A stretch of 64,000 nt of DNA from an uncultured virus (IMG/VR IMGVR_UViG_3300018080_008055) (IMGVR_UViG_3300018080_008055), one strand, 5' to 3'. Positions 24 to 60,887 are shown, numbered from the stretch's first letter. The notes: generated by a model not told the origin, from the sequence alone. Program-made: numbers and translations.

Positions 24-587
24 TTATTTCTTTCTTAAAACTAATATAAATATCAATAATGCAAAATCATACAAAATAATCATTCCCATTAGATTTAGAA
101 ATGATATATCGAAGTTAAATTGATAACCCGGTAATATATCCAAACCTAAAGTTTCAATATAGAATTGTGAATATACCGAAGAATCGGCCTCCATAAAGGC
201 TATTATTCCAAAAATCGCTTGACCGATTAATAAATTCAAACCCAGAATTACTAAAGCCGTAAAAAAAGCAATTCCAAAAACTCGATTGTCTTGGATAAAT
301 AGCCTTACCATTAAAACATGAATTACAAAAAAAATAACAAAGGCCGATATACCATAAATATCAGTATTCGATTCGATCTCTGGAAAGGTTAAGTAAAAGT
401 CCTCATCTAATCCAGTTGAGATAACCCAATTAAAGATTATCGGAGGCATAAACATAATATAAATGATTGTTGAGATTATTGTTATTCCCACAACCCTAAG
501 CATATTATCATAAAACGTCTCTCCAATTATTTTAAATTCTTGGAGTTTTGTTTGTTCTTTTTTTCTCCGGGATTTTTTTTCAGACAT
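24..587 (-). CDS. Multi-pass membrane protein with N-terminal SRRK motif
   Basis: About 4 hydrophobic segments; starts MSEKKSRRKK; N-terminus resembles that of 2444..3187. Confidence 0.8.
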   Translation of the reverse strand: MSEKKSRRKKEQTKLQEFKIIGETFYDNMLRVVGITIISTIIYIMFMPPIIFNWVISTGLDEDFYLTFPEIESNTDIYGISAFVIFFVIHVLMVRLFIQDNRVFGIAFFTALVILGLNLLIGQAIFGIIAFMEADSSVYSQFYIETLGLDILPGYQFNFDISFLNLMGMIILYDFALLIFILVLRKK

Positions 588-588
588 T

Positions 589-2442
589 TTAAAATACTAT
601 ACCTCCAAAAATATAATCTATATCAGCATAATGATCCTCAAGATCAATTCTTTTTATTTCTATATCTAATAGTCTTAATCCAAAAAAAGATTCCCAAACT
701 AAATTCTCTATTTGATCTTGTTTAAACGTATGTATCTCTTCCTCAATTATAATAGTTGTATTAAAAGATTCAGTATTAGTAAAAATCCAAGATCCGAATC
801 CTATTACTTCAGAAAGATAAACAACTGAGGTAAAAATATATTTATTCTCTTCAATTTCTAATTCATTTTTAATTTCTATAATACTTTCAAATTCTAATGT
901 TTCTGATTGTTCAAAATGACATGATTCTATTTCTTTCCAGAAATAAGCCATTACACTATAATTTAGATCTACTTCAAAATCAGATCCTAAATTACTCAAT
1001 ACTAACTCAGCCTGGAGATTCGTATAATCAAAAGAGGAATCATTAAAGAAAATTATTGGAGGATAATATACTTCCTCACTAAGACTAAAATTTGTAGTTA
1101 TTGGAGAGAATATTTCAAAAAATTCAGAGTTCCAAAAATTATATACAGCTAATCTATTCCAACCATCAAAAGCTAAAGTTTTGTTTGTTTCAAATTCAAA
1201 ACTAAAGGTAAAATTTTTCATATTCCGATAATCTTTATTAAAATTCAAATTAATCAAATATTTTTTAAAGTATCTATCAAAAGTAATATCCTTATCTCCT
1301 AGCTCATATTTTTCTTTTGTAATTTCTTCAGTTCCGTTTAACCAAGAGATAGAATCAAAATGAGCTTTTGCAACAACCGGAGGAGCAAATGTATCTGTTT
1401 TTATAGAATCGAATCGAATAACATCTACCCATTGAACTTCCATAATGGCCGGATTAGTCATATTAGCCTTATCAAAAATTTTCTTGTCATTCAAGTAAGC
1501 AGTAAATGTTCCGTTATCTAGTCCCATATAAGAACAATTTGTTTCATGGCATTTAAAATCAACTCTAAGGTTATACCATTGGCGATCAAATACTCTAGTT
1601 GATTCAATAGCCGAATTATTTACCCATTCCGTTCCGTTATAGTGTTGCAAATGTATAATATTAGCATTATTTGTAGGAGACATAACCCCTATTTGAAAAT
1701 TATTACTACAAAGATCTTGTTCAAAAGTCATAATAAAACCTCGATAATAATCCAGGTTAAACCATAGTTCAAAAGTTCCATTATAGAATTTTGGAGAAAA
1801 CATTTTTTCTACATAACCAGAATAATCCATTGATAAAACTTTAGCATGATTCATCACGTTATCAGAGATTTTTACTTTATCGTTGTGTGTCCAATTATCC
1901 GGAGTATTAGTATCATAGTAAAATGAATCACAACCCATATAATGCTCACTAGAATTTATTTGAGTATCATTTTCTTGAGTTGTATTTGCTTTTACATATT
2001 CTAAGTTTTCGGGATATTGTGTTTCTTCAAATGTAAAATTTTTAGAAATTGAAGTTGTGTTTTTGTATTCCTCTATAAGATTTGTTTTGTTTTGAATAAC
2101 TTTAATTCCTTTTATTTCACTTGTTTTAGGAATTTTAATACTAGCTTCCTCCCCATCTTCAATTTCAATTTCATATTCCTTTCCATTGTGTTCAATAATC
2201 AAAGCTACATAATCATAATCCTCTAAATCCTCATTAGAGTATAAAATAATTTCTAGATCATTCATTAGCCCGATAGCTATTATTAAAGTTGAGACAACTA
2301 AGATAGGAATTAAGGCTATTGCTATATTCCGTTGTTTCTTAACTTCTTTATAATTCGTATGAAGAACTTTTCTTTTAGTTCCTTTTGTAATTTGAGTTTG
2401 TACAACCCGGTTTCTATTTCTAGCCTTTCCTCTTGAACTCAT
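589..2442 (-). CDS. Membrane-anchored surface glycoprotein with a LamG/concanavalin-like region
   Basis: Basic N-tail, one TM (IAIALIPILVVSTLIIAIGL), acidic ectodomain with many NxS/T sites; GTFELWF...WYNLRVDFKC...FDSISW segment resembles Loki-type jelly-roll repeats. Confidence 0.65.
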   Translation of the reverse strand: MSSRGKARNRNRVVQTQITKGTKRKVLHTNYKEVKKQRNIAIALIPILVVSTLIIAIGLMNDLEIILYSNEDLEDYDYVALIIEHNGKEYEIEIEDGEEASIKIPKTSEIKGIKVIQNKTNLIEEYKNTTSISKNFTFEETQYPENLEYVKANTTQENDTQINSSEHYMGCDSFYYDTNTPDNWTHNDKVKISDNVMNHAKVLSMDYSGYVEKMFSPKFYNGTFELWFNLDYYRGFIMTFEQDLCSNNFQIGVMSPTNNANIIHLQHYNGTEWVNNSAIESTRVFDRQWYNLRVDFKCHETNCSYMGLDNGTFTAYLNDKKIFDKANMTNPAIMEVQWVDVIRFDSIKTDTFAPPVVAKAHFDSISWLNGTEEITKEKYELGDKDITFDRYFKKYLINLNFNKDYRNMKNFTFSFEFETNKTLAFDGWNRLAVYNFWNSEFFEIFSPITTNFSLSEEVYYPPIIFFNDSSFDYTNLQAELVLSNLGSDFEVDLNYSVMAYFWKEIESCHFEQSETLEFESIIEIKNELEIEENKYIFTSVVYLSEVIGFGSWIFTNTESFNTTIIIEEEIHTFKQDQIENLVWESFFGLRLLDIEIKRIDLEDHYADIDYIFGGIVF

Positions 2443-2443
2443 A

Positions 2444-3187
2444 TTAAAATTCCTTTAATGTATATTCTAAAGCAGTTGTTAATAATAAATTTATAGCAAT
2501 TAATATTGCAAAGCCAATCCAAAAAGCATATAATATATCAAATACGATTAATGGAATGTCTCTTAAAGGATCTCCGGATTGTGCAGTTTCAAATACTCCT
2601 ACTAACATTTCTAGTATCTGAGTATCATTAGGAATCCAGAAAAACGCAATTGCAAAAGCCGTAATAGAACCAAAAATCCATGAAATTACTACGGCTTTAA
2701 ATTTTACTTTATATTGCATAATTAAACTAAATACCAGGTATAATGCAAGAAAGATTATCATAGTCATCATTATTGACAGATAGACAAATCGTATCACTCT
2801 TCTTAGGTACGTCTCCATCCATCTAAACTCAACAATAATAGAACCTACTATCGAAAAAACTAATTGACCAATAATAGCCTCGAATAAGCCTCCCACTCCT
2901 CCTCCTAAATCTATTGTAGGAGAATCATCCCCTCCTCCTAAGCCAAAATAATCCTCAAAAACTTCAACTGCAAATAGACCTCCAATATCAATATTATCGT
3001 GAGCATAAATCCATAACTGAGAATAAAGAGTCTCGGCTAAGAAAGGAAGCATAAAGACGATAGTTATCCCAGTTATTGCCGTTATAATAATATTTCTTGA
3101 TAATATACCTCTAAAACTTAAAGCCTCTTCTCTAGCTTTGCTATAAAAGTTCCTAATCTTCTTTCTTCTTGATTTTTGTTCAGACAT
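2444..3187 (-). CDS. Multi-pass membrane protein with N-terminal SRRK motif
   Basis: About 5 TM segments; starts MSEQKSRRKK; Gly-rich loop. Confidence 0.8.
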   Translation of the reverse strand: MSEQKSRRKKIRNFYSKAREEALSFRGILSRNIIITAITGITIVFMLPFLAETLYSQLWIYAHDNIDIGGLFAVEVFEDYFGLGGGDDSPTIDLGGGVGGLFEAIIGQLVFSIVGSIIVEFRWMETYLRRVIRFVYLSIMMTMIIFLALYLVFSLIMQYKVKFKAVVISWIFGSITAFAIAFFWIPNDTQILEMLVGVFETAQSGDPLRDIPLIVFDILYAFWIGFAILIAINLLLTTALEYTLKEF

Positions 3188-3196: not shown

Positions 3197-3916
3197 TCAA
3201 CTAAGGCCTCCAAAACTGAGGCCTATACTAGCTCCATTAATAAGAGCATGAATAATCATATTAGTAGAAATTCTTTTTGAAAGTTTAAATGAAATTGCTA
3301 AGATAAATCCTCCAATTAAAGTTGATATTAACATTTCCGGTTGCTCTCCATAAACGGCTATATGATAAGACATAAATCCGAATGATCTTCCTATAACCCC
3401 TGCAACTGAACTATTAAAAAACATTTCAACCATAACTTGAGTAATTACAGTAAAAAATAATTCCTCGACAATAGCCATACTTATTGAGAAATATAATAAA
3501 TCAAAGCCGGTTATATTGTATTTTGGAATTGTTAAACTATTAAATATTACGTAATTTGTGATAGAAATAGCTATAAAACCTATTGCTATTCCAAGAAACA
3601 TATTTGTAAATTCATCTCTAGATATTCCCAATTCAATATCGAATTTAGTTCGTTTATATTTCATATCATTAATTATTGGAATGAATATAATACCGATAAT
3701 TCCTAAGAATAATGCTATTTGACCTTTCTCAGCTAGGCTTTGTAAAACGGCCTCTTCTGATTGTGAAAATTGAGTTATTATCCAAGTTAAATAAATAAAT
3801 ACTACTACAGAAAGTAAAACAGAAATTATTTCTAAATTATAAACATATTTTAAGTCAATATCCTTTTTTCCCGGATTATTCCTTTGTTGCTTTCTTCTTG
3901 ATTCTATTTCACTCAT
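3197..3916 (-). CDS. CPBP (CAAX protease/Abi family) intramembrane glutamic protease
   Basis: Multi-TM with motifs IVEELFF, FGFMSYH and HALIN; starts MSEIESRRK. Confidence 0.85.
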   Translation of the reverse strand: MSEIESRRKQQRNNPGKKDIDLKYVYNLEIISVLLSVVVFIYLTWIITQFSQSEEAVLQSLAEKGQIALFLGIIGIIFIPIINDMKYKRTKFDIELGISRDEFTNMFLGIAIGFIAISITNYVIFNSLTIPKYNITGFDLLYFSISMAIVEELFFTVITQVMVEMFFNSSVAGVIGRSFGFMSYHIAVYGEQPEMLISTLIGGFILAISFKLSKRISTNMIIHALINGASIGLSFGGLS

Positions 3917-4014: not shown

Positions 4015-5733
4015 TTAGAAGACTCTTTTTTGTTTTTTTCTCCGGCTTTTCTCTTGTTGCTTTGCAAATTTCTCTTGTTGCTTTGTTAATTCTTGTTTTT
4101 CTTTTTGGATTTTCTCTTGTTGTTTAGCTAAGTCTTTTTGAGATATATAAGGTTGTTGTGGATAAGGTTGATATGGTTGTTGAGTGAAACCAGGTTGTTG
4201 GAATGTTTGATATACTGGTTGATAACCGGGTTGTTGTACTTGTATTTTAACCTTTCCTTTCTTTCCTCCTCCGGTAAATCTCCCAATAAATTTTGCTAGG
4301 ACCACAACTATAATTATTGCAATTATAATGATTATTCCTATTGCAAAAAAGTCTCCGAATCCGTCTCCGAATGTATCTCCGAATAAACCACTAAAGATAT
4401 CCTCAAATAATCCTTTTCTTTGACTCTCAAAGCTAGCTCCGGTTGTACCGGATACGATAGAACCAAAGGTGACATTATCGTAATATTCTTCTGGTTTTTC
4501 TAATGGTACTACTTCATCAGTTTCGACAACTTCAATTTTATATGCAGTCCAAACATTAAGAGTTAGTTTTACTCTTAGTTGAACAAATCTGTTGTGAACC
4601 CAGATTGCAACTTTCTCATTCTTGGTTTTGCTTTCTGAATCTCTATCCCAATCTGGAACACTTGTAAAATATTTATCATACTTCCTAACTTTCCAATGCG
4701 TAAAATGGAAGTTATCTCTATATTCAAAAACAACCGGAGAGAATTTAAAGAAGTTTGTTGAGAAAGAACAATTATCCATAGATTTCTCTTCTGTTTTTGA
4801 ATCGAAAATTGGATCTCCATTTTTATCCTCTGGGTTTAAATCAGAACCTTTGGAATTTACATTAATTCCTAAATCAACGGTTCTATGTACGTAAGCCCCC
4901 GTTAGATAAGGATTAACTGAAACTTGTAGAGAAGCCCCACTTTTATCTTGTAAAGCATGATCCGGTTGCCCATTTTGGCTTAGAGTTTGAGATTTTGACT
5001 CTACATTTGATATTCCTTTAACTTCCGGATTGATCGTATTTAATTTTCCATGAGTTTCATCTTCTAATACAACTGAAGATACTCCAATATAAGCAAATTC
5101 CTTTTCTAGTTCAAATCCTAATTCATCGGTAATAACATCAGGTATTACAGTATCGTCAATGTCAAAGCTCATTTCCAGATCGCCACTCCAATAGTTATTC
5201 TGTAGGTTATGTTTATAAACATCTCCTAAGCTAAGATGTGTCCAGGATATATCGGCCCGGAATCCGTCTCTTTGTTTATCATCTAAACCTTTCCATTTAA
5301 AATCTATACATTCCCATTTCTCTGTTGTATCTGTAAATCTTTCTGAACATTCCATGAAGTTAAGATTTGTAAATACATTAATATCTTTCCTCATAGAAAC
5401 TTTATAATAGTAATATTGTATATCTCCGGATTCTAAATGATAAAGAAGATCTACATCGTCTTTGGTAAGTGTCCATAATCCTTGAGTTTCAAACCCTACT
5501 TTATTACCAAAAGCCTTATTGTTTGAGATAGAAGAACCACAAAATTTATCAAATTTAAAGTTCTTAATTAAATCTCCGGAAGTTAGGAATATTGTATCAA
5601 TATCGTATGCTGGATCTAAAGAACCATTATCTTCTTGAGCAACAGTACTTGGAATTATAGTAAGAAAATTAAAAAAGCCAAGAAAAGTCATTGAAAAAAT
5701 TATGTAAGTTAATAATGCTTTAGAGAATTTCAT
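4015..5733 (-). CDS. Type I membrane protein (candidate spike/envelope protein) with Q/P/Y-rich cytoplasmic tail
   Basis: Signal peptide, ~430 aa ectodomain, C-terminal TM, QQPY-rich tail, ends EKSRRKKQKRVF. Confidence 0.7.
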   Translation of the reverse strand: MKFSKALLTYIIFSMTFLGFFNFLTIIPSTVAQEDNGSLDPAYDIDTIFLTSGDLIKNFKFDKFCGSSISNNKAFGNKVGFETQGLWTLTKDDVDLLYHLESGDIQYYYYKVSMRKDINVFTNLNFMECSERFTDTTEKWECIDFKWKGLDDKQRDGFRADISWTHLSLGDVYKHNLQNNYWSGDLEMSFDIDDTVIPDVITDELGFELEKEFAYIGVSSVVLEDETHGKLNTINPEVKGISNVESKSQTLSQNGQPDHALQDKSGASLQVSVNPYLTGAYVHRTVDLGINVNSKGSDLNPEDKNGDPIFDSKTEEKSMDNCSFSTNFFKFSPVVFEYRDNFHFTHWKVRKYDKYFTSVPDWDRDSESKTKNEKVAIWVHNRFVQLRVKLTLNVWTAYKIEVVETDEVVPLEKPEEYYDNVTFGSIVSGTTGASFESQRKGLFEDIFSGLFGDTFGDGFGDFFAIGIIIIIAIIIVVVLAKFIGRFTGGGKKGKVKIQVQQPGYQPVYQTFQQPGFTQQPYQPYPQQPYISQKDLAKQQEKIQKEKQELTKQQEKFAKQQEKSRRKKQKRVF

Positions 5734-5745: not shown

Positions 5746-6732
5746 TTATCCGGTGATTAGAATTTTATTGTCTTCTAAATCTTCAAGAAAACCCTCAAAA
5801 ATAAAAATCTCAATAGGATCAGTTTTACATTCAAACTCAACGTCTATTTTAGCCTCTGAAATATAACTATCTTTATCTGGGTTTAAGAATACCGGTTCTA
5901 ACAGAATCATTGAAATATTAAGGTCTTCAATGTAAGTATAAGATGGTTCGATATTCTCAACGTCTGCATGTATAACCTCAGTTCCATTGAATACTAACCA
6001 TAGACCAAAGCCTCCGATCTCATATTCAAGTGTATCGTCAAGATCATTTTTCTCTAAGTAATATTCCGGTACGTATGAGCTTGAACCGTATAGACTTGCA
6101 TCCTCGCCCTCGATTGTAGTAATATTAATCCATAATTCAATATCATATTCAATATCTCCGGAAATATCAGATTCATTATAGATTCCTTCAACTCCATCTA
6201 ATTCAGTAATATTGCATTCTACATAATTAGGATTTCTTAAGAAATGAACCACAATTGTATTTTCGTAAGGATCGTTTATGTCCTCTGAGCCTAGAGGAGA
6301 GATTGTCTTAGGTAAGAAAGTTCTACCATCTAAATCATCAGAGTCAATATCCCATACGGTTATGAAAACCGGAGAATCTATATAAAATACCTCTCCGGTT
6401 TCAATTGGATTATCATACCCAGAGTCTTCTGGAAAATCATATTTTTTATCGGATTTGTTGTATTGTGTTAAAACTACTTCACCATCTATTTCATCCCCTG
6501 TCCAAGAATCGATCAATGTAATTTCCATATATCCTGATCCTCCGGCACTAGGAGGAGTAAGTACAGAGAATAATGCAAATCCTCCGATCAAAACTGCAAC
6601 AACAATAAGAATTACTCCTAAAGCTATTTTTGATGATCTTGATTTAGGAACTAGTTTTGAAAATCTTGAATTTCCTTTCGTTTGAGATTTTGATTTTTTA
6701 GGTTTATTTTTTCTTCTAGTTTTTTTAGCCAT
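5746..6732 (-). CDS. Single-TM membrane protein with acidic ectodomain and TRRK N-tail
   Basis: MAKKTRRKNK then TM; ATG at 6732 preferred over the track TTG at 6741, which lies in a TTGAT RBS-like motif. Confidence 0.75.
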   Translation of the reverse strand: MAKKTRRKNKPKKSKSQTKGNSRFSKLVPKSRSSKIALGVILIVVAVLIGGFALFSVLTPPSAGGSGYMEITLIDSWTGDEIDGEVVLTQYNKSDKKYDFPEDSGYDNPIETGEVFYIDSPVFITVWDIDSDDLDGRTFLPKTISPLGSEDINDPYENTIVVHFLRNPNYVECNITELDGVEGIYNESDISGDIEYDIELWINITTIEGEDASLYGSSSYVPEYYLEKNDLDDTLEYEIGGFGLWLVFNGTEVIHADVENIEPSYTYIEDLNISMILLEPVFLNPDKDSYISEAKIDVEFECKTDPIEIFIFEGFLEDLEDNKILITG

Positions 6733-6846
6733 ATTAATCAATTTATAATTATATTATTTAATTATTAATTAGAACTAACTTTTTTATATTTTTTATGTTA
6801 TTGTTATTATTAATCATAATTTTATAAAATACTTTGAGTTAAGAAG

Positions 6847-39664: not shown

Positions 39665-41428
39665 TTATTTCCTCCTAGAGCTTGGAATTTTTCTTTTTTT
39701 CTTTCTTTTCAAATAAAAATTATGTTTCTGTAAATATCTAATTACATTATAAGATACTCCAATAACAACTACTCCAATTAGAAGATAGAGGATAATTTGA
39801 CTTAGATCTAATGGTTCAATAGCCAATTCCGATTCTAATTTTTTATTTTCCTCCTCCTCTTCCTCCGGGATTTCGATAACTATACTTATCGAATTTTCAT
39901 CTCCATTGGAATCATTCGCAAAAAAGGTTATATTTATCAACCCCGAATTGAAAGATAGCCATATAACCGAATCAATAGTTCCGTTATCAGTAAAAAACGT
40001 ATTGTGGCTAGTAAATCCTCCTCCGGATAAAACATACCAGGTTTTATTTAAATTAACACTAAATACAGTAAATACAAAATCCGGAGGAGTTTCTTCATAA
40101 TCGTATGTAGATAATACAAGAGAAATGTCTGGATAATCAATACCATCATTCCAGAGAGGAAAGTAATCGGCCCAATCCATAGACCAATAAACATAAGGAA
40201 TATCACCAATTCCATTATCATCACCATCAGATCCAGTATAATCAGAATAGTAATTATGACTATAATTACTAAATATGCTATTATCTCTAATTGAGATAAA
40301 ATTCTCATCAGTAAAATTATTATAATAAAACGTAATATTAGATGAAGTAATTTTAATATCTATAAGAAAGAGATGAATTCCATGAAAGTAGTTGTGGATA
40401 AAGGAGGAATTAAAAGAGTTGTCTATCTCTATTCCATATTCAAGATTATAAAATTCATTATTTTGAAATAATGAGTTATTTACATTATCCATTTCAATAC
40501 CGTAAGTTCCAGAACCCAATATATCATGTATCTTATTATTTTCTAATGTTATATTAACTACATGAGAAATATAAACTACGGTGACATAATCAGAATTCAT
40601 ATCATTATTATACAAACTTATATTATAACTAAAACTGATACGAACGCAAGAAGATGATTCTTTAAAGATACTTGTATTGACTATTGCAAAATTACAATAA
40701 GAAAAAGACATGCTATTTCCACCGATAAAGGTTGAGTTATCTATTAATGTATAATTACAATGATAAAGATAAAGAGAGTTATAATAACCACCAGAAGTTT
40801 CAAATATAGAACCTCTAATTGTTAGATTAATGCATCTACTCAGATAAGATTTACTGAAATTACTCGAAATAATGTTAGTATCGTTGGAATAGGAAACGGA
40901 AAGCCCACTTCCCATTACATACGTGTCTCCTATTCTTGTCTTATTAATTGTTATATTATTCGCATATTTAATAACAATTCCATTATAAACACTTACATCC
41001 TCATCTGTTTTAATCCCTTCAAAATATCCATTACTAACATTAAAACAATAGACAAACGCATAATCTAAATCTACATTTGCATTAAGCAGAGTAATATTCC
41101 TGAATTCAAAATAATCTTTAGTATCTTTTATGTAAATACAACAATTAATTTCATTCGCATTAATAGTTAGATTCTCTATTAAATAAGGATCTTCTTTAGT
41201 TCCACTACCTGAACAAAAATCATAATGGGATTCAGTATCACTAAAATTATTTAAAATGATTAATGGAGAATCTAATTCCCAATCCAAATTGGTTTTTAAC
41301 CCTTTAAGTGAAAAAGTATTTTCTTTAGCCTTAATATCTTTTTTAATTGAATAATTATAATTATCTAATCTTAAACATGCGATAATAAATAATGCAATAA
41401 GCATTACAATTTTATATTTTTTTTTCAT
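39665..41428 (-). CDS. Right-handed beta-helix (NosD/CASH-like) surface protein, type I membrane, ending SRRK
   Basis: Signal peptide; GSGTKEDPYLIENLTI; Asn-rich repeats; NYYSDYTGSDGDDNGIGDIPY; Ig-like FFANDSNG; C-terminal TM. Confidence 0.85.
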   Translation of the reverse strand: MKKKYKIVMLIALFIIACLRLDNYNYSIKKDIKAKENTFSLKGLKTNLDWELDSPLIILNNFSDTESHYDFCSGSGTKEDPYLIENLTINANEINCCIYIKDTKDYFEFRNITLLNANVDLDYAFVYCFNVSNGYFEGIKTDEDVSVYNGIVIKYANNITINKTRIGDTYVMGSGLSVSYSNDTNIISSNFSKSYLSRCINLTIRGSIFETSGGYYNSLYLYHCNYTLIDNSTFIGGNSMSFSYCNFAIVNTSIFKESSSCVRISFSYNISLYNNDMNSDYVTVVYISHVVNITLENNKIHDILGSGTYGIEMDNVNNSLFQNNEFYNLEYGIEIDNSFNSSFIHNYFHGIHLFLIDIKITSSNITFYYNNFTDENFISIRDNSIFSNYSHNYYSDYTGSDGDDNGIGDIPYVYWSMDWADYFPLWNDGIDYPDISLVLSTYDYEETPPDFVFTVFSVNLNKTWYVLSGGGFTSHNTFFTDNGTIDSVIWLSFNSGLINITFFANDSNGDENSISIVIEIPEEEEEENKKLESELAIEPLDLSQIILYLLIGVVVIGVSYNVIRYLQKHNFYLKRKKKRKIPSSRRK

Positions 41429-41475: not shown

Positions 41476-42327
41476 TTATTTTCTTCTAGATTTGCTTTTT
41501 GGCTTACGGTTTGAGACTTTAATTGATACTTTCTTCTTTCTTAAGAAAATTATTAACCCAATAGATAACGGAATAAAGATTAATAGTAAGATAATTAAAA
41601 TTAAATTGTCTTCTAGCCAATTTGGAATTATTTCTTCCTCCTCCGGTTCTTTGTCATATTGAACGTAATCTATAGCAAGAGGTTCTCCCTCGCCTCCAGT
41701 ATTAGTCAAAAAGAAAAGATCGAGTTTTAGATCATATTTGTTAAGATCCTCGCCTAGATCTTCAGAATCTAAAATTATTGTAATAGTCTTATTATCTTCA
41801 CTTAGTATTAAAGTTTCATTGTATTCATATTCATCAATATTGTACTCAATTACCTCATCTTCATTATTTATAATATATGTAAAAACCGGTATTCTCTCAT
41901 CAAATCCCATTCCTGCATATATTATATTATCTTCACTACAATTAATCATAAGTAAAATATATTGAGTTTTACTTATGTTAAGTTCTTTTGCAATCTCAAA
42001 TTCAATTTCAATAGTATCCTCTTCATCTTTAATTCTTAATTCTTCAATATCTAAATCTTCCCATAGATCATCGTCGGTATAATCCTCTTCATCTAGATCC
42101 TCATAAGAATCAAGTAAATTATCAAATAATTCCACTGCATATTCAGAGTCATTGCTAGAAACTAACAGTTCTAACGGTATTATATCATTAAATTGATTTA
42201 AATACACATCCCCTGTTTCATCCTCAATAGTAATATCGGAGAAAGCATGTATATTGGGAATTGTACTTAAGATTAAAAGAAGAATTAACGGTCCTAATGC
42301 AGTAAAATAGATTAATTTTCTTTTCAT
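41476..42327 (-). CDS. Acidic type I membrane protein ending SRRK
   Basis: Signal peptide, D/E-rich ectodomain, C-terminal TM, KPKSKSRRK-stop. Confidence 0.75.
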   Translation of the reverse strand: MKRKLIYFTALGPLILLLILSTIPNIHAFSDITIEDETGDVYLNQFNDIIPLELLVSSNDSEYAVELFDNLLDSYEDLDEEDYTDDDLWEDLDIEELRIKDEEDTIEIEFEIAKELNISKTQYILLMINCSEDNIIYAGMGFDERIPVFTYIINNEDEVIEYNIDEYEYNETLILSEDNKTITIILDSEDLGEDLNKYDLKLDLFFLTNTGGEGEPLAIDYVQYDKEPEEEEIIPNWLEDNLILIILLLIFIPLSIGLIIFLRKKKVSIKVSNRKPKSKSRRK

Positions 42328-42344: not shown

Positions 42345-43124
42345 TTAATAGAAATTTTCTAAATCTTCAATACTTACATCTTTTACTAGCATTGAGATAT
42401 AAAGTTCATCTAAACAAACCTCAATATCCTCCGGTTGCCAATGAGAAGAGGCCGTAATATTAAAATAGAGGCCTAACAAAGCATTAGTACCGGGAAAACC
42501 ACTTTCTGTAATCGCCGTTAGATTAAAGCTAGGATGAGAAATTAAATTTATTGACTGATTGTGCCATTGATCATCTCCAAAGGTATTGACTAAGAATAAT
42601 GGATTTTGAGATAAGCCCTCACTAATATTAAGATAACCGACTTCATAAACCACATCAGAGGTTTGATTAAATTTTATTTCATACGTTAGGTTCATTTCAA
42701 TAATATCCTCAGCTTTTTCATTAAACCAATTACAGTCAAAAATTAATAGAATATTTCCGGTCGGAGTTATTGTCATATTATAAATTATCCCATCATTTCT
42801 TAAATGAGAAAGTAAATTACCCTCGCCATTAAAGGTTATGTTTGTCTCGTCAGTAAGGAAATAATCTAAATCAACCCTCATTGTAAGGTTTTCAGTTAAG
42901 ATCTCTAAACATTCTTCGCAATCCTCACATTCCTCCTCGCAATCCTCACATTCCTGCCCCTCTGAGTCATTACATATAATAGATACATTTGGTCTAGGCC
43001 AAAACATACCGGCCAAGAAGATAAGAGCTAATACAGATATGACTAAAATTCCGGCTTTCATTACTTGGTTATTTTGTCTAAGTGTTTTTGAACCAATTGA
43101 TTTCTTTCTTCGTGATTTTTTCAT
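42345..43124 (-). CDS. Single-TM glycoprotein with N-terminal SRRK and Cys/acidic stalk
   Basis: MKKSRRKK, TM, ECEDCEEECEDCEEC. Confidence 0.75.
   Translation of the reverse strand: MKKSRRKKSIGSKTLRQNNQVMKAGILVISVLALIFLAGMFWPRPNVSIICNDSEGQECEDCEEECEDCEECLEILTENLTMRVDLDYFLTDETNITFNGEGNLLSHLRNDGIIYNMTITPTGNILLIFDCNWFNEKAEDIIEMNLTYEIKFNQTSDVVYEVGYLNISEGLSQNPLFLVNTFGDDQWHNQSINLISHPSFNLTAITESGFPGTNALLGLYFNITASSHWQPEDIEVCLDELYISMLVKDVSIEDLENFY
42909..42955. repeat. Short in-frame tandem repeat encoding ECEDCEE
   Basis: CGCAATCCTCACATTCCT occurs twice with a 21 bp period. Confidence 0.75.
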
Positions 43125-43202: not shown

Positions 43203-44312
43203 TTAAAAAACTCTTTTTATAGTTATTTCCTCGCCATCAATTTCTAGTTTAGCTGATTCAAAACTTATTTTATTATCATAGCCAAGTTCAAAATAAAGTT
43301 CAGTAATCTCAATTTCAAGAGTCTCTCCGGTTAATATTATCCCATCCTTATTTACATAATAATCTTTAGCTTCAAAAGATGGTACGCCCTCTATATTACT
43401 TGTGTCTATGAAGATCGATAAGGAAAATATATCATTATAATATTTATCACTTCCTCTATTATATACTGTAAAATTAGTTCCTAAGAATATGTTTTGTATT
43501 ACTATGGCTTTCTTTTTATCAAACGATAATCCATCCTCTAGATCATTAGAGGATAAATAACTTTCTGAGCTTAGGTTTATCTCCGGGAAAAAAAATCTCT
43601 CAGATAAAATATTTGCAGTTGTAAAACCAAAATAACTCTGATAAGCCTTTGCATTTGGATATATTGAGGAATACATTTCGGCATCCTCTTCCTTCCAACC
43701 CTTATCCTCTAGTTCCTCAGCTATTTCTTCCATGTTTTTATCTTTATCAGAAATATCCTTTAGATCCTCAAGAAACGTATCATTTAGAACAATGCTATAT
43801 AGCATATCAATACAATCATTTGTTATGTTTTCATAATCCAAATAATTTGTATTTAGAATAATCCCATCTCCAAAATCTATGACATCTTCATAATCCATTT
43901 CCCTTGCTTGTCCCATTACATCCCATTCGGCATCATAATTAGAAAGATAAAAATCAATATCAGATGGTTTTTTAGAATGCCTAGCATCATAAGATCTCTT
44001 AAATTTCTCTGGAGTTCTAACACTTCCAAAAATCAATAATTTATCTTGATATTTTTTTGGAATAGTGATAAACCATCTCTTAATCTCATTTACCACTCTT
44101 AGATACTCTGCTTTCCAATTATCTTGAATTACGATTGTTCCAACTAATTTTCTTTTAGTATTATTTCTCTTTCTTTTTCTCCATTTCAAGTAAGATTTAA
44201 CTTGAGCTACTAACTGAGATTTAGTCTTAGTGGAATATCCTCTAAGATTATTTCTCTTACAGAACTCCTTTAATTCCTTAACATTCTTATTTTCTGGTAT
44301 GTATTTAGGCAT
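43203..44312 (-). CDS. Rho-N/HeH-like domain fused to a Pol-beta-type nucleotidyltransferase and an acidic domain
   Basis: VKELKEFCKRNNLRGYSTKTKSQL; LIFGSV...SDIDF. Confidence 0.65.
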   Translation of the reverse strand: MPKYIPENKNVKELKEFCKRNNLRGYSTKTKSQLVAQVKSYLKWRKRKRNNTKRKLVGTIVIQDNWKAEYLRVVNEIKRWFITIPKKYQDKLLIFGSVRTPEKFKRSYDARHSKKPSDIDFYLSNYDAEWDVMGQAREMDYEDVIDFGDGIILNTNYLDYENITNDCIDMLYSIVLNDTFLEDLKDISDKDKNMEEIAEELEDKGWKEEDAEMYSSIYPNAKAYQSYFGFTTANILSERFFFPEINLSSESYLSSNDLEDGLSFDKKKAIVIQNIFLGTNFTVYNRGSDKYYNDIFSLSIFIDTSNIEGVPSFEAKDYYVNKDGIILTGETLEIEITELYFELGYDNKISFESAKLEIDGEEITIKRVF

Positions 44313-44827: not shown

Positions 44828-45673
44828 TCATAGATACATTTCATAATTATTGGAAATCCATATAATAAATATTATTGATAAGTATATCAGAGTTATAATA
44901 AGGCATGTTCTATAGACCTTAATTTTTTGTAATTCGGAATATTCTTTATAATTTATAGCAACTGTAAATACAAAAGAATACCAGATTAAATGATAAGCCT
45001 GGAAAAAAATAAAAATATTCATTTCATGGGAAAGTTTGTTATTTGTTGTTTTAGTTTGAAACAATAACTCTTGATAAAGAGGAATTATAGATAGTATAAC
45101 TATCAATGAAATTATCAAGAATCCAGGTATTTGAATAAATCTAATCTTTTTTTCATAATAAAGATTAATAAATATTAAGAGGCCTAATGCAATTATTGTT
45201 GTAATTTTAAATAAGCTAAATAAAAGAAACAAAGGAGAAAACCATTTTCCCCTATTTTTATGATAAAAATATATTCCGAATAAACAGAAGCAATCTACAT
45301 TGAAATTTACTGAACTTAACCAGATTATCGGTATCAGATAGATAAACCAAATATATTCCTCTTCAGATAATTTTCTAATAATCAGATAGATAAATAAATC
45401 CGTTAAGAAGAGGTGAACAAATAAGGCCGGTATTATCGGAAGTAAGTACATATAGAAAGCTAAAAAATAGAAATAGGATAGATACATAAAACCCTCGTTA
45501 TAAATTGATTCTCCTCTAAAGAAATTATTAACATCTAAATAATATATAGTAAAATCAGATTCATAGAATCCATAAAACATGAAAATTATTCTGATTATTT
45601 GAATTAAGAAGAGAGGTCCTATAGACATTAAATATCTTCTATTTCGTATCAAATCATGTAATTTAATTCTCAT
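44828..45673 (-). CDS. GT-C fold glycosyltransferase (GT87/DUF2029-like)
   Basis: Polytopic membrane protein with DFTIYY...GESIY...FMYL, NVD and FK motifs. Confidence 0.65.
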   Translation of the reverse strand: MRIKLHDLIRNRRYLMSIGPLFLIQIIRIIFMFYGFYESDFTIYYLDVNNFFRGESIYNEGFMYLSYFYFLAFYMYLLPIIPALFVHLFLTDLFIYLIIRKLSEEEYIWFIYLIPIIWLSSVNFNVDCFCLFGIYFYHKNRGKWFSPLFLLFSLFKITTIIALGLLIFINLYYEKKIRFIQIPGFLIISLIVILSIIPLYQELLFQTKTTNNKLSHEMNIFIFFQAYHLIWYSFVFTVAINYKEYSELQKIKVYRTCLIITLIYLSIIFIIWISNNYEMYL

Positions 45674-50863: not shown

Positions 50864-51154
50864 ATGAAAAATCAATATATTAAAGAGGAAAAAGGAAAAA
50901 TGGTATATTTACATGGAAAAGGAAATTCAAGAAAAACGATTCTTATAAATGGATACAATTTGAAGTTAATGGATTTAAATTCCGGAGATTTATTGTTAAT
51001 TTTAACTTTAACTAATCGGATAATATTCTATGAAATAACTAAAAAATATATGAATAAACAAGTTTATGGTTCTAATCCGGGAAAGTTAATTAGGTCAAAT
51101 ACATATTATTATTCCGGAGGATTAAGTAAAAGTTATCATGGGATATTTTTTTAA
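50864..51154 (+). CDS. Hypothetical protein
   Basis: Plus-strand ORF filling a gap, convergent with 51151..51543. Confidence 0.45.
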   Translation: MKNQYIKEEKGKMVYLHGKGNSRKTILINGYNLKLMDLNSGDLLLILTLTNRIIFYEITKKYMNKQVYGSNPGKLIRSNTYYYSGGLSKSYHGIFF

Positions 51155-51543
51155 CCCATAAGTTTATCAAATATAAGCATACTAGGTAAAACTATTAAAA
51201 TTACAACAATAATTAGATCGATACTTTGACCTAATGCTAATCCAATCAAAAAGACTTCAACAACCGAAATTATCAATACCATTGAGGCCGTATAAAAATC
51301 TATTCTCCGGTTATATTGAATTGCATATACATATAATAATATAATCAATAATACAACAAATCCAAGTATTACCATATATCCGGTTAATGAATTAATTAAG
51401 AAAGTCGGAGACTGAAATATCCCAACAGATAATAGTCCTCCAATAATCGAATCTATACTTGTTTTTAGCATTAGTTTTTTATGATCTATAGATTCTTTTG
51501 GCTTGTTTCTAGGTTTTTTTCTTCTTGATTCAGTTTTACTCAT
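51151..51543 (-). CDS. Four-TM membrane protein with N-terminal SRRK
   Basis: MSKTESRRKKPR followed by hydrophobic segments. Confidence 0.8.
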   Translation of the reverse strand: MSKTESRRKKPRNKPKESIDHKKLMLKTSIDSIIGGLLSVGIFQSPTFLINSLTGYMVILGFVVLLIILLYVYAIQYNRRIDFYTASMVLIISVVEVFLIGLALGQSIDLIIVVILIVLPSMLIFDKLMG

Positions 51544-51833: not shown

Positions 51834-51859
51834 TTTAAAAAAAAGGAAAAAAAAGTTAA

Positions 51860-54745: not shown

Positions 54746-54809
54746 ATTTTATCATTTAAATTATTTTAAATAAAAATTAGAATAAAAAAATATAAAGATT
54801 AAGGTTCAA

Positions 54810-55727
54810 TTATTTTCTTTTTGAACCGGGTATCTTCTTTTTAGATTTTCGTTTCATTTTAAAATCAACTTTCCAAATCACTAAGCCAATTACAATTACA
54901 ATAATTATTGCAGGTATCATTACCATTAGAAGTTCTATCCAATCAATTTCAGTTTCTCCGGCATTAATTGGTTGAATCCCCTCGTCGTAAATTTCCTCTA
55001 TTTCATCAGAGGATAAGGCCGAATCAAAAATAGCAACCTCATCTAAAGAACCATTCCAAAAGCCTTCTGGATTAAAACCATAATCAGCCCCTATTAAGAG
55101 ATCCTCATTGGAATTTTTTAAAGTTCCTACTTCTTCTTCAGTTGCAACTTTATCACCATCAATATATAGTTTTAGCTCATCACCGTCATAGACTCCGGCT
55201 ATATGATACCAATCGCCTACCTCAATTTCCGTTGAAATATCATACGCAACCTTTTCCCAACCACTTGTATAAATCCATAAGGTTAATTCAGAATTAGACT
55301 CAAGATCTAATACGAATCCTTTTGTGTGTGCAGGATCATCTCCAGATTTACTTATTATTGACTGATAACTTGCAATATCATTTGTTTTAACCCAAGCCGT
55401 AATTGTGAATTTATCAAAATCATTTAAAGAATTGTCATCACCCACTCTTACAAAATCATTTGAACCATCTAGCTTAAGAGCATTACCATAATCATCTTGA
55501 CTTTCTGTATAAGATCCCCCATCTAATGTACCATGATTTTCCTCTCCAGATAAGTCTAAGGCCTCAAAAGTTTTATTATCGAAATTCCAATATCCCTTAA
55601 GATCTTCGTGATAGACCGGATCTGTTTCTGAAATTATAAAAGCTGAACTAAAGCTAGTTAGGCCTCCGATTATGGTAATGAAAAGAAAAGTTGATAATAC
55701 CAAAATTGCTTTTCTGTTATTTTTCAT
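54810..55727 (-). CDS. LamG-like jelly-roll surface protein, type I membrane, ending SKRK
   Basis: GYWNFD, ALKLDGSNDFV, FTITAWVK, WYHIAGVYDG..LKLYIDG, GSLDEVAIFDSALS; signal peptide and C-terminal TM. Confidence 0.9.
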   Translation of the reverse strand: MKNNRKAILVLSTFLFITIIGGLTSFSSAFIISETDPVYHEDLKGYWNFDNKTFEALDLSGEENHGTLDGGSYTESQDDYGNALKLDGSNDFVRVGDDNSLNDFDKFTITAWVKTNDIASYQSIISKSGDDPAHTKGFVLDLESNSELTLWIYTSGWEKVAYDISTEIEVGDWYHIAGVYDGDELKLYIDGDKVATEEEVGTLKNSNEDLLIGADYGFNPEGFWNGSLDEVAIFDSALSSDEIEEIYDEGIQPINAGETEIDWIELLMVMIPAIIIVIVIGLVIWKVDFKMKRKSKKKIPGSKRK

Positions 55728-55810
55728 ATTTATCAATTAAAAATTGTATTTAACTAATTATTAGATAAGCTATAATAAAAAATTTAAGTTTGAAAGAAAT
55801 TTAATAAAAA

Positions 55811-56065: not shown

Positions 56066-56106
56066 AAATAAAAAATGGATAAAGAAAAATAAAAAGATTA
56101 GGTATT

Positions 56107-56547: not shown

Positions 56548-56644
56548 AATTATCGTTTTTTAAAATTAATTGTTGAATAAATATTAAATTAACTTTAATA
56601 AAAGTTTTCGCCTGGAATAATTAAAAAATTAGATGAAAGAAGAG

Positions 56645-56971
56645 TTATTTTTTTTTTAATTTGACTAATCTCTTCTCAGCTTTATTGATTTCTTTATTAG
56701 TTGTTTTAATTTTTTTCTTTAATTCGGCTATTTCAGTCTTTTTTAATTCGATCTTGTAAGCTATTCGATCTGGTTTCTTGGATTCTTTCTCTAGATACTC
56801 TGGAGTATCTTTAACCTTATCGGAGACAATTTTCATTAGTCTTTTCTTTTCTATCTTATGATCACTTTTCATTCTAGCTAAGACTCTATTTGCAGTTAAA
56901 TATTCGGCCTTTTGATTCTCTAGCCTTTCTTTTAATTTTTTAATAATATTAGTTTGACTTCTAACACTCAT
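56645..56971 (-). CDS. Basic coiled-coil protein
   Basis: Heptad-rich; track start 56980. Confidence 0.65.
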   Translation of the reverse strand: MSVRSQTNIIKKLKERLENQKAEYLTANRVLARMKSDHKIEKKRLMKIVSDKVKDTPEYLEKESKKPDRIAYKIELKKTEIAELKKKIKTTNKEINKAEKRLVKLKKK

Positions 56972-57030
56972 TGTTATCAATTAGTTTTATTTTATTATAA
57001 ATTTAGATTAAAAAAATAAAAAGATTAGGT

Positions 57031-57390
57031 TTAATTATTTTTAGGAGGAAATAAAAAATCATTTATAGCTTTCTTTTGTAATTTCCTATCCTTAATCTTA
57101 ACGGTTTTTCTTGAAAATCGCCTATTTACCATTAACCATTTTAGACCTGTATCAATTATGTTCTTAGATACTTTTTGATTTCTCCTAAAGTCTTTTGAAC
57201 TCATTTTACCCTCGCTTAGATCTTCCCACATTTTACTTATAGAGGTAATCTTCTTTTTAACTCTCATTCGATATAACTCTAAAATAATATGTTCGCCATT
57301 ATGGTAAGTACTAGCTATTCCTCCATCTTCAGTAATGATTATGGTTTCTTTAGGATTCTCAATTATTATTAAGGCTTTTGCTAATTTCAT
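57031..57390 (-). CDS. Hypothetical basic protein
   Basis: Flanked by promoter copies. Confidence 0.65.
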   Translation of the reverse strand: MKLAKALIIIENPKETIIITEDGGIASTYHNGEHIILELYRMRVKKKITSISKMWEDLSEGKMSSKDFRRNQKVSKNIIDTGLKWLMVNRRFSRKTVKIKDRKLQKKAINDFLFPPKNN

Positions 57391-57463
57391 TTTAATATTC
57401 CATATTTGTTTTTAATTTAAATATATAAATAATACTTAGATTAAAAAAATAAAAAGATTAAGG

Positions 57464-57702: not shown

Positions 57703-58008
57703 TTACATTCCTTTCCTTTTTCTATTAAAGAATTTATAGAGAATAAAGAATATTACAAAAAATACTATGCTCACTATTAAACTTGAAATTCCGGTTATCC
57801 AGGTGGCTATTGAATAGCCGGTAAGACCTATAGTCTCCATAAAAATAGATCCTACTAAAGAACCGGTGATTAGATAATAGATGTTTAATAATATTCCTAA
57901 TCCGGAAAGAATTGTTAAAACTAAGAAAACTAAGGTTGCTATGGAAAAGATTAAACTACGATCACTTTTAGATAGGCTAGAACTTTGAGGTTTTCTTCTC
58001 GTACTCAT
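57703..58008 (-). CDS. Small hydrophobic two-helix membrane protein with N-terminal TRRK
   Basis: MSTRRKPQ; two long hydrophobic segments; basic C-terminus. Confidence 0.75.
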   Translation of the reverse strand: MSTRRKPQSSSLSKSDRSLIFSIATLVFLVLTILSGLGILLNIYYLITGSLVGSIFMETIGLTGYSIATWITGISSLIVSIVFFVIFFILYKFFNRKRKGM

Positions 58009-59485: not shown

Positions 59486-59544
59486 GATTAAAAGTTGATT
59501 TAAGTTTGATTTAAGTTTTGTGCTAGGTTTGAATTTATTCTATT

Positions 59545-60303
59545 CTAAATATATTTTATAATGCTATTTTGATTTTTAGAAGTTTTTTTTAAATTGCTTA
59601 ACCAAATATTTTTAGCAACACTAGGCTTATTAAGAATTTTTTCCCATTTAATAAAATCATTATATAAATTTGGAAAATCCTTAAGGACCTTAATATAGAT
59701 ATAAGCCTGGTAAAATCTACACCAATAACAAGAAGAGACTCCATATTTTTTATAATAATTTTTAGTAGGAATTTTAATTTCGTTTTTTTCTATAAAACGA
59801 TCTCTAAAAGAAGTATTCCAATTTAATAGGGGGAAAACCATTATATCGTTGTTAGTGTCATAGTCGGGTTTAAAGAAGTCATTTCCTTTATAAATTTTAT
59901 TTCTCCTAGAGCTTTCATTTTTTCTTACAGCATTCAATTTATAAAAAACTCCTTTTTCAAATTCCTTTTCTAACACTTTTTTTTGAGGCCTCCATTTCAA
60001 ATCTCTAGAACACCAAGCCGTTTGAAAATTAGGAAAGTTTCTTTTATGATCCTCTGGGTTTGAAATCAACAAATCTAGTTCAAGTGATTTTGCCGTTTTT
60101 TTAATTGCCTCTAAAGTTCCCGGAAATTCAATACCGGAATCACAATAAAAACAGATAAAATTATCAGTAATCTTCTTTACTAAATGTAGTAAGGCTATTG
60201 AATCTTTTCCTCCGGAAAAATTAATGATTAATGGTTTTTTAGTCTCTCTTACGGCTTTTTTAATGACTCTAATTGAGCTTTTCAATGGATTATCTTCGAT
60301 CAT
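59545..60303 (-). CDS. PAPS reductase family protein (DndC/SspD-like) with PIP-like C-terminus
   Basis: FSGGKDS, DSGIEFP, WCSRDLKWRP, VRKNESSRR, PLLNW, SCYWC; ends QNSIIKYI. Confidence 0.85.
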   Translation of the reverse strand: MIEDNPLKSSIRVIKKAVRETKKPLIINFSGGKDSIALLHLVKKITDNFICFYCDSGIEFPGTLEAIKKTAKSLELDLLISNPEDHKRNFPNFQTAWCSRDLKWRPQKKVLEKEFEKGVFYKLNAVRKNESSRRNKIYKGNDFFKPDYDTNNDIMVFPLLNWNTSFRDRFIEKNEIKIPTKNYYKKYGVSSCYWCRFYQAYIYIKVLKDFPNLYNDFIKWEKILNKPSVAKNIWLSNLKKTSKNQNSIIKYI

Positions 60304-60326
60304 TTTAAATCCTTTTTGTTAAGAGA

Positions 60327-60887
60327 TTAAAAATTAAAATTTAAATAAATATAGCCAAATCCGATCATAATTCCAATGAGATTTGAGATTAGATCTTGAA
60401 TAATATTAGGTAATGGTTCAGAAATATATTTTGCATACGATTTTTTAATTTGTAATTTTTTATTAAACCTTTTATTTATAGATTCAAAAGTATATTCAAT
60501 TATTTCAAAAGCAATTGTTAAGAAAAAAGTAATCAATATCAAGTTAGATGGATCTAGATTAAATACAACTAATAAGTAAAAGTAGAATCCTAAACCTCCT
60601 AAGATATGTGTATATATATCAATTGCTTTTATGGAATTAAAGAATTTATTAGCCTCTGGCTTTTCATAAAGGCCGGTATTCATTGCAATTATCTGAAGAA
60701 TCGTGAAAGTCATAAAAAAGAAAAGAGCTTCCTCATAATATTTATTAGTAGAATCGGTATAACAGAAAAGGTAAATTATCATTGCAATTAAAATAATATA
60801 GAGAGTGAAATACCAAATATTATTCTTAGTTGAAGACTGAAATTTATTCCAAAAATTTCTTTTTGATTTTCTCCTGGAGTCATTCAT
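60327..60887 (-). CDS. Polytopic membrane protein with a metal-hydrolase-like H/E/D pattern (DUF2238/VanZ-like) and N-terminal SRRK
   Basis: MNDSRRKS; DIYTHILGG, FEIIEY, DLISNLIG. Confidence 0.65.
   Translation of the reverse strand: MNDSRRKSKRNFWNKFQSSTKNNIWYFTLYIILIAMIIYLFCYTDSTNKYYEEALFFFMTFTILQIIAMNTGLYEKPEANKFFNSIKAIDIYTHILGGLGFYFYLLVVFNLDPSNLILITFFLTIAFEIIEYTFESINKRFNKKLQIKKSYAKYISEPLPNIIQDLISNLIGIMIGFGYIYLNFNF

Follow-up and report, generated by a model that had tools for sequence, protein, structure and literature searches.

A terminal [ST]RRK tetrapeptide on membrane proteins of an uncultured virus and its conservation in a related genome

Introduction

Eukaryotic dibasic signals are located at the C-terminal end of type-I membrane proteins (KKXX or KXKXX, with lysine at positions −3 and −4/−5) or at the N-terminal end of type-II proteins (di-arginine, with RR within residues 2–5) and are read by COPI. 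Here we describe a terminal tetrapeptide, [ST]RRK (termed the tag), on membrane proteins of an uncultured virus (IMG/VR IMGVR_UViG_3300018080_008055), from which a stretch of 64,000 nucleotides (nt), the window, was analyzed. The tag resembles the eukaryotic signals in that it is a short basic motif of predicted cytosolic tails, is present at the N- or C-terminal end according to topology, and is found on unrelated membrane proteins. The original prediction, made from the sequence of the window, had drawn this analogy. The likeness is a conceptual one only, and the positional rules differ. The RR of the tag is at residues 4–10 and falls within residues 2–5 in only one of eight N-terminal cases (57703..58008), the C-terminal forms end in RRK-stop or RRKKQKRVF-stop and do not have K at −3 and −4/−5, and Ser or Thr is required in the tag. 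We know of no COPI-like reader in the host.

Other systems share some properties with the tag. The sorting motif of the baculovirus occlusion-derived virus (ODV) envelope consists of an N-terminal hydrophobic segment with nearby positive charges and directs envelope proteins to the viral membrane; the likeness is that several membrane proteins of one virus bear a terminal feature in common. The ODV motif however is a transmembrane (TM) helix with adjacent charges, is exclusively N-terminal and belongs to a eukaryotic virus, whereas the tag is a fixed tetrapeptide at a distance of 11–51 residues. Twin-arginine translocation (Tat) signal peptides, whose consensus starts with S/T-R-R and continues with x-F-L-K, likewise have an S/T-R-R core close to the N-terminus, followed by a hydrophobic segment, but the tag lacks the x-F-L-K continuation, has a long polar spacer, is also C-terminal, and is carried by polytopic and type-I proteins. 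The tripartite C-terminal sorting domains (LPXTG, PEP-CTERM, PGF-CTERM, and Synerg-CTERM with the CPBP protease MrtS) are comparable to the four C-tail carriers, whose N-terminus is signal-like and whose C-terminal TM helix is followed by a basic end; a CPBP protease is also encoded near the carriers. Unlike these domains, the carriers show no conserved signature ahead of the TM helix apart from W[LI][ED] in four of eight type-I proteins, their basic end is fixed and not a generic cluster, and the tag is also present at the N-termini of polytopic proteins, the protease included. The positive-inside rule likewise describes a K/R-rich side of the membrane, but it concerns composition only, whereas the tag has a fixed residue order, identity and terminal position.

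To our knowledge, it is not known how archaeal viruses and mobile elements choose membrane proteins for a particle, a vesicle or an assembly site, and no short linear tail signal of the [ST]RRK kind has been described in them. A full-text search of the literature gave no paper on SRRK together with archaea, and the passages of Asgard-virus papers that were searched make no mention of CAAX, CPBP or PAPS genes or of a tail motif.

Results

A terminal tetrapeptide selective for membrane proteins

A greedy search of the window gives 126 open reading frames (ORFs), of which 120 are on the minus strand. Membrane and soluble calls, and topology, were made with our own Kyte-Doolittle hydropathy-window script and not with a dedicated predictor; by this measure 22 ORFs are membrane and 104 are soluble (13,919 residues in the latter). 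The exact [ST]RRK sequence is found 11 times. All instances are in membrane ORFs and none is in the soluble ORFs (Fisher test, 11/22 against 0/104, p = 3.5e-10). Every instance is within 10 residues of a terminus: eight start at residues 3–8 and three are in the last 10 residues, where two form the protein end and one is followed by six more residues. The 12 termini listed in the original prediction read as written, i.e. 11 exact motifs and an SKRK variant at 54810..55727, and its remarks that SRRK is not seen in soluble proteins and that some membrane proteins are untagged are both correct.

The composition of the proteins would give 0.37 instances. Shuffling of whole proteins gives a mean of 0.39 (0 of 300 shuffles reach 11), shuffling within tails a mean of 0.17 (0 of 3000), and shuffling within 13-residue terminal windows a mean of 0.31 with a maximum of 4 (0 of 5000). 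Since no shuffle of any kind reaches 11, pure positive-inside composition is excluded. The composition-matched count proposed with the original prediction is thus 11 observed against means of 0.17–0.39. As a guard against post-hoc choice of the motif, all exact 4-mers were ranked; SRRK is the most widespread in the window proteome (nine proteins), and no 4-mer is present in more than five proteins in 2000 terminus shuffles.

The residues of the tag are not interchangeable with others of like charge. Lys makes up 12.1% and Arg 3.9% of the residues of the window ORFs, yet [ST]KKK is found only once in membrane ORFs despite the approximately threefold excess of Lys. Membrane ORFs have 14 RR pairs, of which 11 are within [ST]RRK, and at the termini of these proteins the residue before RRK is S or T in 11 of 11 cases. 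The 25 RR pairs of the soluble ORFs are at background level and show no preference for a preceding S/T (one [ST]RR) or a following K (five RRK). Several soluble ORFs start with MAK(K) as do some carriers, four of them in the late-gene region at 46–54 kb, and none is tagged.

The tagged ORFs are clustered. Of the membrane ORFs at 1–7.5, 39.6–45.7 and 51–64 kb, 11 of 17 are tagged, versus none of five at 7.5–39 kb (hypergeometric p = 0.018, computed by hand).

The motif acts at the peptide level

The codons of the motif vary among instances. When the nucleotide pattern MGRAGRAAR is used to ask for reading frame, it is found in frame 0 within the first 60 nt of eight membrane genes of the window and nine of a related genome, G001 (described below), and in the other frames in zero and two genes, respectively. 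Over the whole sequences, 10 of 14 and 12 of 19 matches are in frame 0 and the other frames are at background. The signal is frame-specific and therefore acts at the peptide level, and the earlier claim of peptide-level conservation is borne out by the differing codons and the frame together. A Shine-Dalgarno-like or purine-tract signal in the nt sequence was rejected because the pattern depends on frame. The C-terminal motifs were also considered as ribosome-binding sites of the next gene, and this was rejected with the nearest downstream starts approximately 50 and 128 nt away.

Codon choice shows one regularity. Over both genomes, 15 of the 16 Ser residues of the tag have a TCN codon and one has AGY, whereas AGY accounts for roughly 29% of the Ser codons of the window. 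As Thr codons are ACN, C is nearly always the second base of the S/T codon of the tag, and this may reflect interconversion of S and T through single changes.

Topology and geometry of the tails

When K+R are counted only within 15 residues of TM segments, a count that omits the motif itself in most carriers, the motif side is the richer in 10 of the 11 window carriers and one is a tie. The four C-tail proteins (the SKRK variant included) have a hydrophobic signal-like N-terminal segment and strongly acidic bodies (net charge −13 to −42), and fit type-I surface proteins with a cytoplasmic C-terminal end. The original prediction placed the motif always on the cytoplasmic side. Standard topology rules agree with this, as judged by the K+R counts and the signal-like N-termini, and the placement is accordingly given here as a predicted one.

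The motif is usually 11–31 residues from the TM segment (range 11–51) and the spacer is polar. It reads alike in the N-to-C direction at both ends, with eight N-tails and three C-tails in the window; G001 has one C-terminal instance. Eight type-I proteins were examined and all eight display a TM helix followed by a basic end.

In four of these eight proteins a W[LI][ED] sequence follows acidic residues directly before the C-terminal TM helix (window 41476-42327 and 54810-55727; G001 5940-6788 and 17329-19017). A common C-terminal anchor module may have this sequence as its juxtamembrane part. Apart from W[LI][ED] there is no recurring signature before the C-terminal TM helix in the eight proteins.

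Conservation in a related genome

The IMG/VR record G001 (93,471 bp) carries direct terminal repeats and is 100% complete according to CheckV. A BLAST match in G001 is found for 61 of the 126 window ORFs, and gene order is collinear but circularly permuted. The window proteins map to a 73,259-bp contig in a large protein collection, and approximately 9 kb of this contig are outside the window; the G001 block at 3.5–14 kb, which has many small membrane proteins, should be the counterpart of this missing part.

G001 has 12 [ST]RRK instances, 11 in 36 membrane ORFs and one in 159 soluble ORFs (p = 2e-8). Two of the instances in membrane ORFs seem farther from the start only as a result of an ORF start called too far upstream. 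Several are on small proteins that have no counterpart in the window.

Orthologues of nine window carriers are present in G001 and five keep the exact motif. In these five pairs the motif has 11 nucleotide differences and yet is identical at 19 of 20 residues, whereas flanks anchored on the motif are identical at only 14 of 61 positions. The motif is therefore an island of purifying selection, although not an absolute one.

The carriers

Apart from their tails the carriers are unrelated, as had been claimed. In BLAST comparisons among 59 membrane proteins of both genomes, window carriers are alike only in the tails, with two exceptions. 3197..3916 aligns with 51151..51543 over the N-terminal 51–55 residues, and 54810..55727 with 39665..41428 over the C-terminal 51 amino acids (aa), where 37% are identical. 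Profile comparisons of three adjacent N-tail carriers align the tag only, or the tag and the first TM helix at 22% probability. Table 1 lists the carriers together with a conserved untagged gene.

Table 1. Tagged membrane-protein genes of the window, the SKRK variant, and the ATPase-nuclease gene (positions in nt of the window)
Position	Strand	Product	Terminus	Motif (nt)
24..587	-	4-5 TM protein, no known family	N-tail MSEKKSRRKK	561-572
2444..3187	-	5-6 TM protein, no known family	N-tail MSEQKSRRKK	3161-3172
3197..3916	-	CPBP / Rce1-like glutamic intramembrane protease	N-tail MSEIESRRKQ	3890-3901
4015..5733	-	572-aa protein, signal-like N-terminus, C-terminal TM	92-aa Q/K/E-rich C-tail ending EKSRRKKQKRVF	4036-4047
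5746..6741	-	Single-pass protein, acidic C-terminal domain	N-tail MAKKTRRKN from ATG at 6732	6709-6720
39665..41428	-	587-aa beta-helix/NosD-like surface protein, signal-like N-terminus, C-terminal TM	C-tail IPSSRRK-stop	39668-39679
41476..42327	-	283-aa acidic protein, signal-like N-terminus, C-terminal TM	C-tail KSKSRRK-stop	41479-41490
42345..43124	-	Single-pass protein, Cys/Glu-rich C-terminal domain	N-tail MKKSRRKK	43104-43115
51151..51543	-	130-aa 2-3 TM protein	N-tail MSKTESRRKK	51517-51528
54810..55727	-	LamG (Laminin_G_3) surface protein, signal-like N-terminus, C-terminal TM	C-tail variant IPGSKRK-stop	54813-54827
57703..58008	-	101-aa 2-TM protein	N-tail MSTRRKP	57991-58002
60327..60887	-	186-aa 4-5 TM protein	N-tail MNDSRRKS	60867-60878
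61254..63086	-	610-aa conserved protein, P-loop-like GLGKS, C-terminal PD-(D/E)xK-like domain; context of the membrane-gene module	untagged	

Among the N-tail carriers, 24..587 retains SRRK in its G001 orthologue (60% identity) through four synonymous nucleotide changes, and 2444..3187 has TRRK in the orthologue (56% identity). SRRK is likewise retained in the orthologues of 3197..3916, of 51151..51543 (65% identity, with indels in the flanks) and of 60327..60887 (50% identity). The orthologue of 5746..6741 (40% identity) has TQRK at the place of the motif and that of 57703..58008 (39% identity) has SRRL.

3197..3916 matches Pfam PF02517 (E-value 1e-9, 39 bits versus a cut-off of 22.4). The EE, H and HxxxN columns are kept, and E150, E151, H184, H222 and N226 are invariant or nearly so among 13 sequences. 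By these criteria it is a CPBP protease with an intact catalytic signature. The same cannot be said of 24..587 and 2444..3187; 2444..3187 does not align with the CPBP protein beyond the tail.

Among the C-tail carriers, 4015..5733 has a G001 orthologue (31% identity) that terminates in KSRRRQEQQLF, and a weak G001 relative of 41476..42327 has the C-terminus KKKSRQRGSKP. 39665..41428 displays the Pfam Beta_helix domain (6e-8) and matches the NCBIfam NosD family at 1.8e-13, below cut-off; a scan of viral contigs with this protein gave no relative. 54810..55727 matches Pfam PF13385 (2.3e-33), and the five distant homologues inspected all lack the C-terminal TM helix and tail.

One domain is shared between an untagged window protein and a tagged G001 protein. 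43203..44312 has a 126-residue acidic domain after an SAP/Rho_N-like DNA-binding N-terminus and is without a TM helix. In G001 7966-8919 (L003) this acidic domain (40% identity) is located instead behind a TRRK tail and a TM helix, and a single domain is thus joined to two distinct modules for N-terminal anchoring.

Distribution beyond the two genomes

An exhaustive HMMER search with the CPBP carrier gave 68 cluster representatives and none has [ST]RRK anywhere in its sequence. The 11 closest CPBP representatives have a basic N-terminal cluster at the place of the motif, which includes RR in five and is a looser basic cluster in six. The relative at 49% identity (P0046) is without the motif; it occurs on 37 contigs, the longest of 68,857 bp. 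In the CPBP family, the carrier family that was searched, the alignments suggest that the sharp tetrapeptide is confined to the window and G001 and was built on an older, looser basic N-terminus.

Scans of viral contigs with 2444..3187 and with ATPase, PAPS and CPBP profiles gave only G001 and an unrelated 72-kb contig (L014) without the motif. Besides G001, a scan of metagenomes returned two distant contigs (31% identity to the ATPase); their five membrane ORFs are without [ST]RRK, which is too small a sample for any conclusion. Searching with a degenerate DNA pattern of MSExxSRRKK gave one chance match, on a contig of 61% G+C, and a genome-contig scan with the ATPase profile gave no relative. 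A genome-contig match of a PAPS-reductase homologue (P0023) is to a contig of 61% G+C labelled Dehalococcoidia and was set aside as irrelevant.

The host

The PAPS reductase encoded at 59545..60303 has its nearest named homologues in metagenome-assembled genomes (MAGs) of Odinarchaeota (57% identity) and Hodarchaeota (58% identity, on a 79,461-bp contig). Organism labels are present on only two of 26 non-self matches, and both are these Asgard MAGs. An Asgard association is therefore plausible; the host assignment is unproven, these two labels are the only evidence for it, and binning of mobile elements into MAGs is unreliable. Among sequencing runs, one DNA run of a sediment metagenome contains the sequence and may be the source sample, and no RNA run is listed as containing it.

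Other features of the window

The window is uniformly of 27% G+C along its length. Most ORFs have no family match in PHROGs, Pfam or NCBIfam. The recognizable ones include two adenine methyltransferases, a UDG-family protein, two PAPS-reductase-like proteins and DUF5131, in addition to the CPBP, beta-helix/NosD-like and LamG proteins. There are several winged-helix proteins with weak archaeal-type matches to TFIIE-alpha, Cdc6_C, TrmB, ORF80 and Sta1, all below cut-off. Capsid, portal, terminase, kinase, TatA/C, histone and GT87 families were not recognized in the window with the same three libraries, and the earlier labels 'GT87' (44828..45673) and 'histone' find no support in Pfam. The window gave no phosphatase or kinase in the family-library scans, no tRNA gene and no Rfam match.

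The ATPase-nuclease, 61254..63086, has 64–65% identity to its G001 counterpart and only four relatives, its own copy included, among 5.8 billion clusters. The tagged gene 60327..60887 is two genes downstream, with 60893..61252 between them. The AlphaFold2 model of the ATPase-nuclease is weak (pLDDT 61, from a four-sequence alignment); its C-terminal part gives weak Foldseek matches to Hjc/Cas4-type PD-(D/E)xK nucleases (E-value 0.01–0.3), and its profile has no match among PDB sequences. The protein may be a new kind of enzyme for genome processing or packaging. A tblastn search with this protein and an 828-aa protein of the window gave no match in 50,697 phage records. Structural neighbours of the 828-aa protein in the ESM Atlas have TM-scores of 0.16–0.27 (by query), under the level of a shared fold; some of the neighbour clusters are mostly Promethearchaeota, which is a lead only.

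The protein most conserved between the two elements is encoded at 54118-54432 (80% identity, 104 aa, basic). It has no family match, and its Atlas model is poor (pLDDT 0.41) and gives no usable structural neighbours. We regard it as a candidate for either a major structural component or a protein that packs DNA.

A repeated intergenic element, CCTAATCTTT[AT]TATTTTT, is found at 49941-57462 on the minus strand, e.g. at 49941-49958, 52829-52846, 54100-54117, 54470-54487, 56085-56102 and 57012-57029. With up to three mismatches there are 18 matches versus 4.8 expected, and with up to one mismatch there are 10 copies, all on the coding strand of the late-gene region. The placed copies are just past a gene stop and approximately 15–60 nt before the next ATG. 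In the upstream sequences inspected, a TTGAT[AT]A box follows, 3–5 nt before the ATG, and several tag carriers are behind such a box. The element is probably a shared late promoter/terminator cassette. The late-gene region (~49–57.5 kb) is mostly without GGAGG-type sites, whereas the early/replication region (9700-38500) has GGAGG-type Shine-Dalgarno sequences 5–10 nt upstream of the genes, often within the end of the preceding ORF. Because of this overlap many small ORFs in the region end in ...EE or ...EEE.

Discussion

We propose that [ST]RRK is a shared linear tag under selection, and that one cytoplasmic reader gathers the membrane proteins bearing it at one membrane site for co-assembly. 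A probability of about 0.4 is given to this proposal, in which we infer the cytoplasmic side, the existence of the reader and the purpose of co-assembly. The original prediction took the motif for a sorting or assembly signal, a reasonable though unproven view. The tag, at the free end of a predicted cytoplasmic tail, would mark a chosen half of the element's own membrane proteins, mostly those in the module of membrane genes and the ATPase and not those of the replication region. It would be usable at both ends of a protein, whichever way the protein is oriented in the membrane, and would require Ser/Thr followed by Arg-Arg beyond mere positive charge. A common reader, either an element or a host protein, would bind the tag and gather unrelated enzymes, small 2-TM proteins and large surface proteins at the virion envelope, a vesicle or an assembly patch. 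Use at either end, taken with the strict need for S/T-R-R, makes one common cytoplasmic reader the likeliest explanation, and the same N-to-C reading at both ends is more readily explained by a soluble protein that reads a flexible end than by co-translational machinery.

Several findings weigh against this proposal. Half of the 22 membrane ORFs are without the motif, and one G001 instance is in an ORF without a predicted TM helix. SRRK in G001 alone (six proteins) merely equals the family-wise shuffle maximum, and four of the nine orthologue pairs differ in one or two residues (SRRR, TQRK, SRRL, SRQR). Only two genomes are known to have the exact motif. None of the 11 closest CPBP representatives (30–49% identity, same length) has [ST]RRK, and therefore the CPBP family does not need it. 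No reader protein was found (no complex prediction of tails with partners was made), and no capsid or envelope hallmark was recognized among the window proteins in the family-library scans. In addition, of the 11 soluble ORFs at 52–63.7 kb that have a match in G001, 10 are net positive and only 63140..63664 is acidic.

The basic tails could instead bind nucleic acid directly, in the manner of SPKK motifs (consensus [ST]-P-[KR]-[KR]), and thereby tether or condense the AT-rich genome inside a membrane-bearing particle with no protein reader. The tails are strongly basic beyond the motif, the genome has the low G+C content given above (27%), and the G001 variants TPRRKK and KPRRKT fit the SPKK consensus. 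The topological rule would hold for any enveloped particle, and the acidic domain found behind a TRRK tail and TM helix in G001 is behind an SAP-like DNA-binding N-terminus in the window. Nevertheless none of the 104 soluble ORFs is tagged, though many are strongly basic and probably DNA-binding. The tag is present in one copy per protein, unlike the tandem SPKK arrays, and its strict residue order exceeds what charge-driven binding needs. We consider direct binding unlikely.

Equally unlikely in our view is a role of the motif in determining topology or insertion, or a host habit, in which it would be a local form of the positive-inside rule that is read by the host insertion machinery and is common on host proteins. 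That it is always on the K/R-rich side would be expected from this, as would the basic or RR clusters of CPBP relatives elsewhere at the place of the motif. However the composition-preserving shuffles of the terminal windows give 0.31 instances versus 11, RR is used though Lys is three times commoner than Arg, and the motif is 11–51 residues from the TM segment and not adjoining it. In type-I proteins it follows the last TM helix and in N-tail carriers it precedes the first, two placements that co-translational insertion would not treat as equivalent. It is missing from half of the membrane ORFs and from all 68 CPBP representatives.

A site of modification or processing is less probable again. 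The invariant hydroxyl residue before RRK could form a Ser/Thr phosphoswitch beside a basic patch, but no kinase or phosphatase was found in the window. Alternatively the motif could be a dibasic cleavage site, possibly cut as has been proposed for CPBP sorting proteases that act on C-terminal sorting domains. The enzyme would be the CPBP protease of the element, which has an intact catalytic signature, is encoded in the module and matches the MrtS model weakly (E-value 2e-4, 21.7 bits versus a cut-off of 130); the C-tail carriers also have the TM and basic-end layout of sorting domains. Set against cleavage, the protease is itself tagged at the N-terminus, a C-terminal sorting domain does not suit the N-tail carriers, the region before the C-terminal TM helix has no conserved signature except W[LI][ED] in four of eight proteins, and the distance of the motif from the membrane is too large for cleavage within it.

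Descent could account for the repetition if 5′ ends (promoter cassette and first codons) and tail-TM modules had been copied by recombination, leaving a tetrapeptide without function. The late-gene region does have a repeated upstream cassette and common MAK(K) starts, two G001 genes are identical in their first 12 residues, and 3197 with 51151, and 54810 with 39665, are similar in the tails only. But soluble ORFs with the MAK(K) start are never tagged, codons vary among instances, the motif is also at C-termini, and it is conserved in orthologues whose flanks are not. Neutral copies would not remain exact at 30–65% identity. Descent as the sole cause is very doubtful. A twin-arginine export signal, suggested by the match of the S/T-R-R core to the start of the Tat consensus, can be dismissed, since hydrophobic residues at RR+2 and RR+3 are found in none of 18 N-tail instances (window and G001), a polar spacer of 11–51 residues precedes the hydrophobic segment, five instances are C-terminal or in a protein without a TM helix, and no TatA or TatC was found in the window.

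To return to a tag with a cytoplasmic reader, a more specific form of it would have the tag as a cargo label that plugs membrane proteins into an Asgard membrane-remodelling machine, with a reader of the coat, adaptor or ESCRT type. The chance of this is slim, but if it were true the tag would be a ready peptide bait for the reader.

The element thus has a four-residue tag that is statistically clean, is conserved in a second genome, and is carried by enzymes, small hairpin proteins and large surface proteins. If the motif should prove common on host proteins, it would be of modest interest, as a local variant of the positive-inside rule. If on the other hand the host is an Asgard archaeon and the reader is host-encoded, the tag would have a bearing on the origin of signal-mediated membrane sorting.

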